From Mobula birostris (taxonomy: Eukaryota): 64,000 bases of DNA. Positions 23,838-42,399 of this stretch are shown piece after piece. Each line of letters starts with the position of its first letter. Position 1 is the first letter of the stretch. The notes beneath the pieces were generated by a model. The model did not search any database. It had not been told where the DNA came from and saw only the letters and a list, made by a program, of their open reading frames with translations. A program made the translations under genes and the position numbers. The stretch covers positions 12,117,123 through 12,181,122 of the forward strand of contig NC_092380.1 of NCBI RefSeq assembly GCF_030028105.1. The letters are read 5' to 3'.

Positions 23838-24982
23838 CTGAAGAAACATGAATGAAAAATGACATTTGAGGAACGTTTCTTATGACATTCTTGGATAGGA
23901 GTTAAATGTGAATATTCAATGACCTGACTGACATGACCACATTCAAGACATTAACAACAATTGTGCATGATATTTCCCCTTTAGGTTACTGAAGCATTAT
24001 GTCTGTTCATTTTTAATACCAAATTTTTTCAGAAATTACTGAAATATTAGAAATCATACTTATTCCCTGGAAAGATGAAGTTAAAAACTATATATGCCAA
24101 ATATCTGAAATACCACATGGAAGTATCAGAGAAGAGAATTGGGAGGATAATGCCTAAAGGACATTAGCATGAAAGCCTTGGAAACCTTAAGCTGGCTCTC
24201 GTCTTTTCTAAATGCTGGCAAACATTACTTCCGGTGTATTTTCTATTTTTATATATTTGCATAAGATAATTGTTAATATTTAGATTAGTAAAATTATATG
24301 GCAGCTTTTGTTGGGTGGGGGGGCAAGAGAAAGTTTGAAAATCAAACCATTTTCAAATTTCTGGTTTTGAAACATAGAAGCAAGATCAAAAGAATCAAAA
24401 CAGCACAATACAACAATCATTCAACTATGTGGCACAGATTTCAGATTGACAGAATACATGAAAGCTATTTCCAGTAATGATCCTTTAGGTAATCAGAGTT
24501 CACCAGTCTCATTGCTCATTAATAGTTTTCAAATGGCAGCATCATGTTTGAGTGAATGACTAATACCAACAGAACAGTTGTGCAAAATACACATTCTGCA
24601 TGAAAAAGTACCATAAATTATTGGTTTCTCAACATTTCTGTGTAGGATCCTTGCAAATACTAATCCATTTCCAAGTAGCTAGCAGTTTAAAACTCATGCT
24701 GAATTTCTGAGATCCATTCCCATATTTAGTTGCCAACATTGACAAAATATTAAATTTTCCTCATGATTCTGGCATGATAAATGATACACGGGAAAAAAAA
24801 ATGCTTAACACAGATTCAGTATGCCTGCTTTTGTGTTGAATAACCAGAAAATTTACAGCATATTAATCATGTGGACAAAAAATATGGGAGGGAAAGGGGG
24901 AATGACAGGGGAAATGACAGAGAGATGGGAAAAAAAACTAGACTTGGGCAGGCAATAGGTGAGAACACTTAAAAAACAACAA

Positions 24983-34674: not shown

Positions 34675-34737
34675 TAGGGGTATGATTCTCACTTTGGGTG
34701 CGAGAGGTCTTGGGTTCAAATCCCAGACGAGTCCCCA
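34675..34737 (+). pseudogene. 5'-truncated tRNA-Pro(TGG) retrocopy including the 3' CCA
   Basis: taggggtatgattctcactttgggtgcgagaggtcttgggttcaaatcccagacgagtcccca matches vertebrate tRNA-Pro from nt 13 through CCA with 5 transitions, three at CpG. The first 12 nt are absent, so there is no acceptor stem. Confidence 0.93.
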
Positions 34738-34741
34738 ATTT

Positions 34742-35350
34742 TGTCACGTACCCCGTGACGGGTTAAAGAACCAGCAGAAATGGAAGACACCTTGGAATTT
34801 GGAATTGCTATTAACTAATACTCGTTTATTAGGAACTACACAATACAATAATATATCAGATATATCAAATAGGTTAGCAATGATTATACATATAAGCGTG
34901 GAAATATAAAAACCAAGCTTCTTCAAGTCTAGAGGTAAATGGATACAGTATTACGGTGATGGGTGAAGTTCAGTTCAGTTCATGGTACTGAGTTGAGTTG
35001 TGATGGAGAGGTTGTTGTTGTTTGAGTAAGCTGATGTCGTTGATTCTTCCCGCTGTCCTCCAAAATCCTCTCGAAGTCACCGAATGTGACCACAACAAGG
35101 GGACGTTTTCTGTGGTGAAGTCATCAACCTAGGCGAGGGTTGGACACACTAATAACTTCCCACCAGTCACACCTTCTCCACACTGCAAGAGCCACTGATC
35201 GATCCTCCAAAAGACCACCTGCTGTGGGCACAACAAAGCTCATCCAGTGTCCAAAATCATGTGTCTCTGTGTCTACCAGCTGACCTTCTATTTATCTCAC
35301 CCTGCTGAACACCAGCCAACCATCAAGTAGCTCCTCCCTTCTCTCTCTGT
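34742..35350 (-). mobile_element. LTR (Gypsy/ERV-like), U5 end abutting a tRNA-Pro PBS
   Basis: Minus strand ends ...CGTGACA, then AAAT, then TGGGGACTCGTCTGGGAT (PBS-Pro). AATAAA at 34825-34830 and TATA-like GATAAATAG near 35290. The far boundary is uncertain. Confidence 0.75.
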
Positions 35351-35357
35351 CTCAAAA

Positions 35358-35579
35358 GAACACAAAAAGCTACAGGAACTTGGTGGGTCAGGCAGCATTT
35401 ATAGAGGGAATGGACAGTTGAGATTTTGGGTCAAGACCCCTCAACTGGATGACAGATTAAGGGTCTCAACCTGAAACCTCCAATGTCATTTTCCTCCGTT
35501 GATGCTGCTTGACCTGCTGAATTCCCCCAAGGTCTTGTGTGTTGCTGCAGATTCCACCATCTGTAGTCTTGTGTCTTTA
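35358..35579. repeat. Penelope-derived inverted (foldback) repeat pair
   Basis: Arms ggtcaggcagcat...gggtcaagaccc and gggtctcaacctgaaac...atgctgcttgacc. Possible TSD tgtctcaaaag (35348) / tgtctcaatag (35580). Confidence 0.75.
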
Positions 35580-36879
35580 TGTCTCAATAGCTTGTCAAGC
35601 AGCTTTTTATATTACAGTTTCTTATATACAGAAAAAAAATCAGATAAGTTCCTTTTCCAAAATAAATTGTACTTAAGAACAAGTCTCACCATTAAAAGTT
35701 TGTCCTATGAGCAGTTGAATAATCTCAATTTTGCCCTATATTTAAATTGTGACGGTAGGCTGAATGCTGTTTTAAACAAAGCAAGAGTAGCAGTTTATCA
35801 TTAAGGGGAAAGCTCAGAGTAAATGATAGCCTTGGCTGCAATTTGATCCGAGTACCTCAGCAGCAATATGCAAAATTAAGCTGTGCTACTTGGCCATCTT
35901 TATTTCAGAGGCTTTAAAAGACTAATGATTGTTCCTGGAAGAGTAGAAGCTGCTGGATCCAAATAAAGAAGTGATTACATTTTCTTAGGCAATTAAAGAA
36001 TCAGATCCAAACTATACTTTCAGTAAAATAGAAGGATTTGTTACTGTTCTAAATAGAAAGCAATTTGTGCAGGATTACAATTCTTTCTCCATGCACCTGA
36101 ATTAAAGAGGCCACTAGGTTTACTGGAATGTAACCAAAAAAGCTGATTTCAAAAGGACATACCATCCAAGAATCTTTCCACTCTCCCAATCGGAATCTCT
36201 CTACAAAAGCATTTATGTTTATCTGCTGGATCTCAGCATCCCTGAGGTTCAAGCAGAGATGAATGAAATTGCATTCAGACATGAGTAAGTAGTTCGCGAT
36301 GAATTTTTTCCACTGGGAGTATTAACGCTGCTGTTATACTCATCTATAAGTGATTTTTTGGAAGAATGTACAATAATTATCCAAATATGAAGCAGGCGCT
36401 TTCTGATAAACAAATAGGCTTCAGCCTTTCTTTTAATGTGTCACCATCTTCTCCCTATATCCCCATCTCAACCCACATTTCTCTGCTGCTATCAACTAGA
36501 AAATCAGACCTAGACTGCAGCCATAACTTATAGTCAGCGAGATCATAACCATTCATCTCAGAAGCTGTCAGATCTTTGCACAACTGAGTTTGTAACTTTG
36601 ATTATGAAAAACAGCTTAAACTGTAAAATTCAAATGAGGGACTTTCCGTGTCTATACTGAAGTTTGAAATTCATATCAGATTGCAAAATATAATAACCTC
36701 TCCTTTATCTGTAATTTATCTATCTTGGATTCTCATAACATTGGCAACAATTCCTAATATTAACTGATATATATTTTTCAAAATACAAAATAGGTATGGA
36801 AAGACATCTTTAGTTTAGTTTAAACATATAATTTATAGTTGTAGGTTGAATAGTAGCAACATCTTTTTTAAAGATTTTC

Positions 36880-37035: not shown

Positions 37036-38602
37036 CATGTACTCATGAGTATGATCCATGATTTATTTTTTTGTAGTTTACACTAATAATGCTTAGTTTT
37101 AAAAAAAATTGCAGTATTAATCATTGTTATTTAAAAAGATAAGGAAAAGAAATATAGTTCAGCAATATAAAGTTTCTGAGAAATTCTGATACAACTGGCA
37201 CTCTCTATTCCCCATAGATCCTGGATGACTGATGAATTACTGGTATTAGCAATTGTTCTGACAAAACCATCCAGTAGAAACTTAAAATTCCAGAAATTTG
37301 AAAAGGCCATGTACTGATACTTTTTGAAAAATAATTTATAAATTTAAACTGAATCCACTGTATTTTGTGCTCCTTCCCACTTTTTCTCCACTTCATTTTA
37401 ACATATGAAGCAAATGTTAGAAATGGTATATTTAAAATATGTGAAGCTGTACTTTTAAAGCAAGTCAACACTGGCCATGCCACCCAAGTATAGATCTGAC
37501 CAAAGTTTCAGTTCTGAAATATGACAAATTCAGTTTAGAATTAGTATATTGCTCATGTACCATCCTACCTGTTTAACACAAGGGAAAACAAGAGCAAATT
37601 TATTATTCAAGTGAAGTTGCCAGTACATTTGCAAAAGCAAATGTTCCTAATAGCATCAAAGAAACATTTCTCTGATTTATAACTGAATGAGTTAAAGTTG
37701 CTTTTGAATCAAGGGTTTGAAGGCTCAAGTTCCACCTAAGAGCCCGGAACACAAATAATCAGGGTGACACTCCAATGCAATACTGATTATGCAATACTAT
37801 CAGTATGATACACGGAACTGAAGCCTTAGCTGCACTCAGGTGGAAACAAGAAATCCCATGGCATCATCTAGGAAAAAGATCAGGTGTTGTCCCTGGGGTC
37901 TTGACCAAGCAACCATCAATCATACTTGTGAACAGATTGCCCAGTGTTTATCACATGCTGTTTCTGTCAACTCAAAGCTGACATGTGGAACACAAAATAA
38001 CTGGAGTTTGTAGGAAAAAATAAATGCAACAGATTTTCTTTAAAACAATGATAAAGAAAAGCTACGAGTTCAGCTAATTTAAAACAAAAGATAACTGAAG
38101 ATCGTGTCTTTCAAAGTATCTACCAAAATCTGAGAGTGTAGCTCATTTTGGTTTGTGACCTAGCAGATAAAGGTATTACCTTGTTCTGAATGAAGCTGAA
38201 GACCTGTACGTATTCCATTCCTCAGTTTGTGAAGGAACTTCTACTAGTCAGGCATGCATGGGGCTTCATTGCTCCCAGATTTGGAGCAAAAAGACAGGGG
38301 TGGAAAGTGGTGCATAAAACAAAAATTCAAAAGGGCTCCAACCAGTTGTTTTATTTGGCAACTATCAATTAAATTTCTTGTGTAAAGGTAGAAGATAAAG
38401 AAGATTTTATTAGGCATTATGGTGTGTGTGGCTGGATCACTAGGAAGTTTGCAATGAAGGTATCAAAACTAATCTCCACTCCAACAATGAACCTTCTTAA
38501 AGCAGGCTGGCCCACCTTCCTAACTGTAGGACCAATGATTTGCAAGGAAATTGCATGGGAACTGTAGGGTGGGAGCAGCATCAAATAACATGGTTTTATG
38601 TA

Positions 38603-40199
38603 CAAACCCCATTTCCAGAAAAGTTGGGATATTTTCCAAAATGCAATAAAAACAAAAATCTGTGATATGTTAATTCACGTGAACCTTTATTTAACTGACA
38701 AAAGTACAAAGAAAAGATTTTCAATAGTTTTACTGACCAACTTAATTGTATTTTGTAAATATACACAAATTTAGAATTTGATGGTTGCAACACACTCAAC
38801 AAAAGTTGGGACAGAGTTAAAATAACATTGAAAACTGCACAGAATATTCAAGTAACACCGGTTTGGAAGACTCCACATTAAGCAGGCTAATTGATAGCAG
38901 GTGAGGTATCATGACTGGGTATAAAAGTAGCATCCAAAGGTTCAGTCTTTGCAAGCAAGGATGGGTCGTGGCTTACCCCTTTGTGCCAAAATTCGTGAGA
39001 GAATTGTTAGTCAGTTCAAAAGGAACATTTCTCAACGCAAGATTGCAGAGAATTTAGGTCTTTCAACATCTACAGTAAATAATATAGTGAAAAGATTCAG
39101 AGAAGTCACAGACATCTCAGTGCGTAAAGGGCAAGGTCGGAAACCACTGCTGAACGCGCGTGATCTTCGAGCCCTCAGGCGGCACTGCCTAAGAAACCGT
39201 CATGCTACTGTGACAATTATAGCCACCTGGGCTCGGGAGTACTTTGGAAAACCATTGTCACTCAACACAGTCCGTCGCTGCATCTAGAAATGCAACCCGA
39301 AACTGTTACGCAAGAAGGAAGCCATACATCAACTCTATGCAGAAACGCCGGTGGGTTCTCTGGGCCCGAGCTCATCTCAGATGGACCAAAAGACTGTGGA
39401 ACCGTGTGCTGTGCTCAGATGAGTCCACATTACAGCTAGTTTTTGGAAAAAAGGGGTGTCGAGTTCTCCGTGCCAAAGATGAAAATGACCATCCAGATTG
39501 TTATCAGCGAAAGGTGCAAAAGCCAGCATCTGTGATGGCATGGTGGTGCATCAGTGCCCATGGCATGGGTGAGATGCATGTATGTGAAGGTACCATTGAC
39601 TCTGAGGCGTACATTAGGATTTTAGAGAGACATATGTTGCCATCAAGGCGACGTCTCTTCCCGGGACGTCCATGCTTACTTCAGCAGGACAATGCCAGAC
39701 CACATTCTGCATGGGCTACAACAGTGTGGCTTTGTAGACACAGAGTGCATGTGCTTGACTGGCCTGCTGCCAGTCCAGATCTATCTCCTATTGAAAATGT
39801 ATGGCGCATCATGAAGAGGAGAATCGGACAACAGAGACCACGGACTGCTGAGCAGCTGGTCTTATATCAAGCAAGAATGGACAAAATTTCCAATTGGAAA
39901 TCTACTACAATTAGTATCCTCAGTTCCAAAATGATTAAAAAGTGTTATTAAAAGGAAAGGTGATGTAACACAATGGTAAACATGTCTCTGTCCCAACTTT
40001 TGTTGAGTGTGTTGCAGCCATCAAATTCTAAATTTGTGTATGTTGACAAAATACAATTAAGTTGGTCAGTAAAGCTATTGAAAATCTTTTCTTTGTACTT
40101 TTGTCAGTTAAATAAAGGTTCACATGAATTAACATATCACAGATTTCTGTTTTTATTGCATTTTGGAAAATATCCCAACTTTTCTGGAAATGAGGTTTG
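38603..40199 (+). mobile_element. Full-length Tc1 (DD34E) DNA transposon, 1597 bp, 214-bp TIRs, TA TSD
   Basis: TIRs 38603-38816 and 39986-40199 are nearly identical, with TA at 38601-02 and 40200-01. Each TIR has an internal direct repeat AAAAGTTGGGA. Confidence 0.97.
38961..39975 (+). pseudogene. Tc1 transposase pseudogene
   Basis: HTH region MGRG.PLCAKIRERIV..ISQRKIA.NLGLSTSTV and catalytic VLCSDES / QQDNARPH / SPDLSPIENVW with 34 aa between D and E. TAG at 39285-87 plus frameshifts. Confidence 0.93.
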
Positions 40200-42399
40200 T
40201 ACAATGAGTGATGTCAGACTGCAAAGTTGTTAGTGTGTATTAAGAGTTGTGGATGCAAACAATCCTCTTAAAATTCTGTAGCAGTGGTAATTGAGTTGCT
40301 CACTATTCATCTTGGATTATCTAACTTTATAAGAAAAACAATATTTTAATGTAAATATATCAATAATTAAGCATACATAAAATGCATTGTAAAGGAACAT
40401 ATTAAATTATTCAATTCAATACAAATTGCAAGTGTGTTATATAGATTACTCATGTGGACAGTTTTCCTAATACAAATCTGCAGTAGGATTGTGGATTTTC
40501 CACATGTCTTCCTCCTACCACAAATTGAACACCACCTAATCAAAGAATTTTAGTTCTGACAAATTGAGCTGAAACGTTAACTCGGCTTATCTTTCCACAG
40601 ATGCTGCCTGACTTGTTGAGCATTTCCAGAATTTTCTGTCATTGAGGAAGGTTAGGGTTCTAGTGAGTGGACAAATAGAAAATTACAGGGGGAAAAAAAA
40701 CACAATAGAATAGGAAATAGCGAATGATAACTAAAGCCTATCGTAAAAAGAGCAGAACATACAAAGTTTAGTACAATTCCAATGAGCATCAGTAGAGGTT
40801 CAGATTTATCTGAATACACCACGTAGCAAGGTCAGAGAAGTAATGGCATAAATTACTGGGTACAATCTAAAAGCCATTCCAGAGGCATGGTTGCATATTA
40901 ACAAAGGTTGGGAATTCAAAATTCTGCATTTATTTTTAAGATGATTTAGGCAAAATGGAGGTGGAGGCAGAAAGACCTGATGGAGTCAAGGCTGAACTGA
41001 AAAACGGGAAGGGGCAGAAAAAATGACGAGTGTTGTATATAGGCTATCCAAACTGTAGGAAATACAAGGAATTGGAAAATTGAACATGCATGTACAATAA
41101 CCATGGACAAGTTTCGATCTAGAAACAGTGCAGACAAACCAAATAATCTCTGTAGATTAAAAATTGTTGCGTTCAATTATTAAAAATGGGCTATTTTTGA
41201 TTTAGTACTGTGTTATGACAAAGGGTTGATCTGATGGCTAATGGACCATTTAGAGAGCAGTGACCATAATGTGAGAAATTTCATATCAAAAAAATTGAAA
41301 GTGATTTACTTAAATCTGAAATCGGAGACGTAATTCTGAATTAAACCCAAACTAAGGTGGCACTGGGTATGAACTGGCCATGGTAGATGGAGAATCTACA
41401 TTTAGTATGACTGTAAACAAACAATGGCTAACAGTAAAAGAATCATTCAACATTTTACTAGTAACATATACTTATGACAAAATATAGGAAAAGTAGTTGA
41501 TCCATGGATATTAAGAAAGGCAAAGATAAATACTAAAAGGTAAAAGACAATGATGCCTTCAAAGGAACAGTAAGGTTGACAGCTGGGAACATTTCCTGTG
41601 CTAGGACATTGATAAGAAATGGAAAGAAGAATGAAAGGATACCAGAATTAAACATCAAAATGTAAGCAAGAGCTTCTATAGATATGCGAGGACATCATAA
41701 TGTGGGTTCCTCAGACGGAGACAGGAATATACTGGAGAATCAGAAAATGGAAGAGAAAGAAATCTTTAATGACCATCTTCACCAAAGACACAGAAAATAA
41801 TAATTAACTCAAGGTCCAGAGTGAACAAGGTGCAAAGAAACTAACATTAATTTGTCCAATACTATTTTGTCACTGATGAGACTGAAGGACAATAAATTCC
41901 CAGGCCCTGATGATTCTGCATCAAAAGGGTTTGAACAAGACAGCAATGGAGATGGACGACAACTGGTATATCCACTAAAATCTCATAAAACTGATATGAT
42001 GCCTCAGTTTGGACAGCAGCAAAGAGGCCCCTGTTGTTCTAGAAGGGGTGGGAGAAGGAAAAGAAGAAACCTAGGAAATATAGACAAGTTAGCTTGAGAA
42101 AGACAGAAGGGAAAAAATGCCTGAATTTATTATCAAAGGGATGATTACAGAGTATTTACTACTACTAATACTAGGATTGAACAGAATTAACATGGACTTA
42201 CAAAAGGGTTTGTCAAATCCACCAGTTTTTTTTTTGAGGCATTAACTAGCAGTACAGGTAAGAGTGAATCAGTTGATGTGGTGCACCTAGATTTTAAAAA
42301 TCCCTTAAAAAGGTAGCGAACAAGAGATGAATATGAAAAATTGAAGTGCACTGTGTAAAGGATAACTCACTGATCTGGATCAAGGATTAGATAACGTAA

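Follow-up and report, generated by a model that had tools for sequence, protein, structure and literature searches.

By which route did part of a long terminal repeat (LTR) become joined to a DNA copy of its primer tRNA that exceeds the length of a primer-binding site (PBS)? The structure lies within a window of 64,000 nt, by which the whole stretch of DNA analysed here is meant, and all its parts read on the minus strand. From 34742 the LTR end passes into a 4-nt spacer (34738..34741), which in sister copies normally stands between the LTR end and the PBS, and then into 63 nt of antisense tRNA-Pro (34737-34675) spanning the CCA end to tRNA nt 13. The first 18 nt of this tract (34720..34737), the canonical PBS length, are the complement of tRNA nt 76-59 including CCA; the other 45 nt (34675..34719) form an over-extension complementary to nt 58-13. 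The U5 end, the spacer and the CCA-first complement are in exact register. Nucleotides 1-12 of the tRNA are absent, so that the A box is broken, and there is no tail.

When aligned to a genomic Pro-TGG gene (L067) with CCA added, the tract is identical at 58 of 63 positions, a match with a chance expectation of about 3e-24 in the 64-kb window. The five mismatches are all transitions, three of them at CpG, and nt 58, 37 and 34 are unchanged. An earlier, sequence-only reading of this DNA had described the same order of LTR end, spacer, PBS-Pro and extension to nt 13, with no gag or pol behind it, and is confirmed in both respects: internal sequence of the LTR family was looked for across the whole 64 kb and none was found. 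ARAGORN and Rfam returned no tRNA match over the window, the truncated copy lying under their thresholds. We consider it probable that the insert is a plus-strand strong-stop cDNA of a Gmr1-like gypsy element that was over-extended and then end-joined at a chromosome break. We regard it as a dead fossil and predict no function for it.

Contigs from public run X1 span both insert junctions with 1 and 0 differences, and the insert is therefore not an assembly artefact. The site was examined in eight public runs (X9 twice) from organisms labelled A-F. Organisms A and B carry the insertion, B with the same right junction, and organisms C, D, E and F (five runs, one contig each) have an empty site, in which 34677 is joined to 35350 across 23 other letters, or to 35344 across 17. 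The LTR piece and the tRNA copy arrived as one unit, replacing 17-23 nt of target. Separate insertions of the two parts were ruled out, since the sites of related organisms lack both; a tRNA fragment standing without the LTR at orthologous loci, which the sequence-only reading had named as evidence against itself, was not seen.

The check for a target site duplication (TSD) at the relatives' empty site, which that reading had proposed, gave none, in contrast to the exact TSDs of 16/29 sister LTRs. The features of integrase insertion, intact outer ends and a 4-bp TSD, are absent, and those of cDNA capture at a double-strand break are present, namely lack of a TSD, target deletion and junction microhomology. 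At the right junction (34675..34677) 3 nt are common to the tRNA copy and the target, the empty-site contigs matching the window up to 34677. At the left, LTR junction (35344..35350) an imperfect microhomology of about 5-6 of 7 nt is shared with the empty-site sequence, the joints being 34677-35350 and 34677-35344. Neither independent insertions nor ordinary integrase action nor a LINE-type insertion is compatible with the structure of the empty site, which fits end joining at a break of the kind described for Ty1 cDNA in yeast (PMC11372161). As tRNA copy and target have the final 3 nt in common, the true tRNA end is unreadable here and unmappable to a modification. The capture case was checked by an empty site at the window locus alone.

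Next to the LTR junction lies an older dispersed repeat (35356-35580) that contains inverted arms; since the empty-site organisms have it too, it predates the insertion. Its D2 copies lie in the window at 24982, 28028, 33283 and 59639. A Tc1/mariner-type DNA transposon occupies 38599-40203, with 218-nt terminal inverted repeats 97% alike and HTH and DDE_3 frames between them. Organism E, which lacks the window insertion, has a contig of its own from elsewhere (run X11, record 2) in which an LTR end is followed by a 62-nt tRNA-Pro match.

The LTR was searched as a DNA query against a 4.0-Gb vertebrate assembly, and the best 40 of 4641 candidates, those scored, have 83-88% identity to window positions 35350-34742. 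The sequence-only reading was right to see an LTR, as this is a real repeat family, but the window copy (34742..35350) is only the 3' 609 nt of an LTR of about 780 nt. All 29 other fetched copies extend 5' beyond its start, most by about 160 nt. Full LTRs run from TG to CA and have, besides the exact 4-bp TSDs, a TSD with one mismatch in 3 more of the 29. An AATAAA motif resembling a polyadenylation signal (34825..34830) is found in 26/29 other copies. In full-length copies the 5' LTR is followed by the same spacer and PBS-Pro, so that the other condition named by the sequence-only reading as refuting it does not hold either, and the tRNA part lies outside the LTR end, sister LTRs being without it. 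No strand-biased hypermutation was seen in the LTR. CpG decay is alike in both parts of the insert (23% in the LTR, 3/10 positions in the tRNA).

Internal regions of the family encode SCAN and CCHC domains in gag (L123) and an integrase upstream of RT/RNase H (L121, L122), an order which we take to be the hallmark of Gmr1 elements. The best solved-structure match of the family RT is Ty3 RT (E 1e-73), far above retroviral RTs. The SCAN domain in gag has been linked to Gmr1-like elements (PMC4131045). By domain content and order the family is thus placed as Gmr1-like Ty3/gypsy, with which it shares the SCAN and CCHC gag, the integrase before RT/RNase H and the RT nearest to Ty3; the window differs in holding an LTR piece only.

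Which strand was captured depends on whether U3 is represented. A TATA-like motif at 35289..35295, about 55 nt inside the truncated end, recurs at the same interval in 27/29 other copies, and in 2/29 copies the motif is within the 160 nt missing here. The insert probably includes part of U3, if this motif is the promoter; the U3/R boundary is placed by the motif alone, and sister chimeras have whole LTRs. A different intermediate is conceivable, in which minus-strand DNA, either strong stop or stalled after the first transfer, was captured with its RNA primer and the tRNA was copied by a host or LINE RT. The 5' truncation, which leaves the start of the insert so near the TATA-like motif, suits such an intermediate, and Ty1 intermediates are captured in yeast, where the source, in the part available, suggests RNA:DNA hybrids as substrates (PMC11372161). 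U3 in the insert, should the motif be correctly read, nevertheless excludes a simple minus strong stop, and complete LTRs with integrase-type TSDs in sister chimeras are plus-strand products. We regard the minus-strand route as unlikely, and the over-extended plus strand is retained as the preferred reading.

Sister chimeras were surveyed by DNA and pattern searches for tRNA matches of at least 32 nt, the DNA searches scoring the best 40 candidates each and the whole being biased toward good tRNA matches. At least 27 distinct junctions between an LTR end and tRNA-Pro were found in this genome, in several LTR families and at least two gypsy clades. Nine of the 27 come from the family seen in the window or from closely related ones, and the remainder from other families, for several of which the LTR end was judged from its terminal motif alone. 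Family B, for example, has a PNMA-type gag and the order RT-RH-INT, and represents a different gypsy clade. At the 12 chimeric loci whose two outer ends could be located, the TSD is an exact 4 bp in nine, has one mismatch in two and is absent in one; the nine exact cases indicate that many overruns were rescued and integrated normally.

Some chimeras consist of a full-length 5' LTR starting at TG, then the tRNA copy, then internal or inverted element sequence. The element resumes after the tRNA copy in U5, just past the PBS, or inverted. Two loci, L168 (G000:C22:9539000-9548999) and L234, have U3 at both ends joined via a tRNA copy, and each of the two is flanked by a TSD of exactly 4 bp. This resumption together with the TSDs indicates that the overrun strand often switched template and that its product still integrated. 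In family B, the youngest copies of which are about 99% alike, a long overrun is present at 8/59 exact-pattern primer sites. In the window's family the count is 4/61, two of the four being duplicates.

Rescue of this kind raises the question whether the window insert was once such an element, integrated and then cut back by two deletions, or whether the break was repaired by copying an existing chromosomal chimera. No class is commoner than that of rescued elements with TSDs, and deletions also leave microhomology. Two deletions would, though, have to remove just 17-23 nt of host DNA in total, and the right junction is common to organism B. No close donor is apparent either, the best LTR match among the best 40 of 4641 scored being 88%, and the family's other chimeras read GGG or are internally deleted. 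Both variants are distinctly unlikely beside direct capture of the cDNA.

The sequence-only reading had further suggested a hybrid tRNA-LTR element family, or a seed of tRNA-derived SINEs, and LINE-mediated retroposition of an LTR-tRNA chimera would be the corresponding route. Fusions of tRNA with LINE-1 are known in mammals (PMC13174262), three of the long family-B overruns share one junction, at an imperfect microhomology, and the two Pol III boxes are retained in copies that end at nt 5-7. The window copy, against this, has no TSD, tail or LINE part, its target is deleted and its A box is broken; of the features of a tRNA-derived SINE it lacks intact boxes, a 3' tail, a TSD and dispersed copies with one junction. 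The other chimeras have their own junctions, and the three same-junction loci of family B could reflect onward transposition. A group on C17 with 20 or more copies over 33-88 Mb (L229-L232) was considered as a mobile family and rejected: the segments of at least 10 kb, each with one LTR-tRNA element, are 93-97% identical, and flanks shared over 10 kb in the four copies compared mark one event that was duplicated. No SINE-like amplification was found among the chimeras, and those with both boxes are single. A new SINE or hybrid family is therefore very improbable, as junctions, flanks and LTR families all differ, and neither suggestion of the sequence-only reading is upheld.

CCA had been taken in that reading as the mark of a mature template. 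It is indeed present, but some intron-containing tRNA-Pro genes have a genomic CCA trailer, so CCA alone is no proof. Copying of a genomic tRNA gene was ruled out, since the CCA-trailer genes have an intron that the chimeras lack and no gene flanks accompany the copies. Many intron-containing tRNA-Pro genes, with the intron after nt 37, are dispersed over C17 (L101, L103, L106, L108, L109, L113, L116, L135, L148-L150 and L152, mostly on C17), and in one group of them CCA follows the discriminator directly. The window copy itself bears no modification mark: its anticodon is TGG (or CpG-decayed CGG), TGG being gene-encoded, nt 58 and 37 are without misincorporation, and only CCA is shown.

In the population of junctions, anticodons and endpoints are more informative. 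The 13 copies passing nt 34, one ambiguous row being left out, comprise seven GGG, three CGG, three TGG and no AGG, and the 12 exact intronless genomic tRNA-Pro genes comprise eight AGG, three TGG, one CGG and no GGG (GGG 7/13 vs 0/12, P=0.005). Inosine-34 is read as G, and eukaryotes lack Pro-GGG (PMC8062790). For the population, then, the GGG anticodon likely represents inosine-34 read as G from a mature, modified template. Maximum ends (n=27, from a table with four rows hand-corrected from the automatic alignment, one row added and one 27-nt row dropped) fall at nt 35-39 in 12 cases and at nt 5-13 in 13, with one at 26 and one at 42. Just one of the 27 lies between nt 14 and 34 (P=2e-6), and five stop precisely at nt 38, one base short of G37 (P=3e-4). 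The mapping of endpoints to modification sites, another check proposed at the outset, thus gives clusters for the population, while the window's own end is blurred by microhomology.

In human cells Pro-AGG has no G37 signal and Pro-UGG has m1G37 (PMC8062790); this is consistent with inosine copies running past nt 37 and the remaining copies stopping at it. For the cluster of long ends m1G9 is a candidate, which leaves five ends at nt 7 unexplained, and the cluster shows no sharp peak at nt 10. In zebrafish many tRNAs carry these marks, Pro not being named in the part of the source available (PMC11417395), and human tRNA-Pro carries m1A58 (PMC11251516). The ends at nt 35-39 might instead mean that 3' tRNA halves, produced by cleavage in the anticodon loop, served as primers. 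Such halves occur commonly (PMC13174262), and 7/12 ends of the cluster lie at positions other than nt 38. The five ends one base before G37 speak for m1G37 stops, as does the fact that copies past nt 37 are mostly of the inosine isoacceptor, without an m1G37 signal in human cells (PMC8062790); ends at 37-35 may be chance or microhomology matches. Priming by tRNA halves, which concerns the population only, is rather unlikely.

Ordinary primer sites hold a second trace. The sequence-only reading had taken a PBS to be normally 18 nt at most; in the window's family, ordinary sites are already complementary to the tRNA as far as nt 53, apart from the position opposite A58, and in family B as far as nt 56. 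Among 61 pattern matches in the window's family the base opposite A58 is A in 42, T in 10, C in 7 and G in 2, and the two neighbouring positions have T in 60 and 59. In trees of 57 ordinary copies these states are scattered like shuffled labels (15 vs 14.6 and 14 vs 14.5 changes), and the transition to G is rare (2/15, P=0.001-0.007). With 11 and 10 long-branch rows dropped, the change count is matched by 2/122 A columns in the LTR alignment and 39/224 in the internal alignment; as it is unexceptional among internal columns, rate alone is weak evidence. Ordinary family-B copies have C opposite A58 in 4/50, with neighbours varying in 0/100 (P=0.011), and one of the C copies sits on a branch of zero length next to sister copies with T, 15 of the 46 T copies having been included. 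At this position 26/27 long overruns carry T, the correct base, which the queries favoured. Methylated primers likely lead to a stop or to misreading with a short rescue tract, and unmethylated ones to long overruns; m1A58 also promotes a second stop at nt 54 (PMC8599865). About 17 nt before the LTR end, the family-B U5 (L159) contains a tract similar to the complement of the 5' end of tRNA-Pro, over 9 + 7 nt interrupted by a small bulge. It might be another point of contact with the primer, and similar tracts occur in other families (L085, L140, L144).

The origin proposed for the window insert may be outlined as follows. As the family anatomy shows, tRNA-Pro primes at the PBS. The plus strand would then copy U3-R-U5 and overrun A58 and G37, on a primer likely to lack these methylations; the earlier proposal of a reverse-transcription intermediate whose primer was copied past both is supported. 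The over-long 3' end would be mismatched to the minus strand, so that normal second-strand transfer fails, as is established for HIV-1. At other loci most surviving overruns were rescued by template switching and integrated by integrase, as the 4-bp TSDs show; at the window locus both ends would have been trimmed and joined via short microhomologies, with the observed loss of 17-23 nt of target.

Each ingredient has laboratory precedent (PMC13191261; PMC8599865; PMC12220202; PMC11372161). The literature was searched for a genomic survey of such fossils or a germline population of them and none was found, subscription journals, Repbase and supplements lying outside the search. We lean towards the view that about one in ten new insertions of a young family carries a long primer copy, rescued by template switching and still integrated, that gypsy elements of this lineage routinely overrun A58 of tRNA-Pro, and that the fixed copies form a datable map of germline tRNA-Pro modification (inosine-34, isoacceptor-specific m1G37 and m1A58 misreading). 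The window locus, with its ortholog-checked empty site, indicates that dead-end retrotransposon cDNA can patch a break in the vertebrate germline. From the sister loci it seems that the replication cycle can sometimes survive an overrun of the primer, contrary to what is usually said of HIV-1, and that assembled genomes keep a readable record of germ-cell tRNA modifications, past and present.

The strong-stop model of SINE origin by Okada and Ohshima reportedly begins with a tRNA head followed by antisense U5. The geometry here is alike, without SINE-type amplification; the model becomes testable, as raw chimeras arise often and none was found amplified as a SINE. Fusion of tRNA with a retroelement is shared with Helenus TRIMs (PMC10886601), in which the tRNA part lies inside both LTRs as a promoter, unlike its position outside the LTR end here, and with tRNA/LINE-1 chimeras, which carry long TSDs of 9-19 bp (PMC13174262). 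Capture of Ty1 cDNA at breaks in yeast is alike in its LTR-rich fragments, cDNA-only extra nucleotides, microhomology, trimming and lack of an integrase signature; the breaks there are somatic and experimental, and the available part of the source mentions no primer copies of 63 nt (PMC11372161).

Over-extended plus-strand strong-stop DNAs of HIV-1 stop at Psi55, m5U54, ms2t6A37 or the tRNA 5' end, primer over-extension sequence is known in lenti- and spumaviruses, and long overruns are said to be unable to complete transfer or to integrate (PMC13191261; PMC8599865). Copying past A58 and the stop just before modified nt 37 are alike, as is the short tRNA-complementary tract after the PBS. The present cases differ from HIV-1 in involving gypsy elements, tRNA-Pro and fixation in a vertebrate germline, with exact integrase-type TSDs at 9/12 resolved loci. 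The closest structural parallels are an MLV circle with a tRNA-Gly copy between its LTRs (Colicelli and Goff, 1986, as described in PMC12220202) and the HITME tRNA insertions of 63-65 nt in HIV-1 (as described in PMC12220202), where a near-complete DNA copy of a mature tRNA, a few 5' bases missing, likewise adjoins an LTR. Those were single laboratory clones with non-cognate tRNAs, whereas the chimeras described here contain the cognate primer, arose in many natural events and include one with an ortholog-checked empty site.
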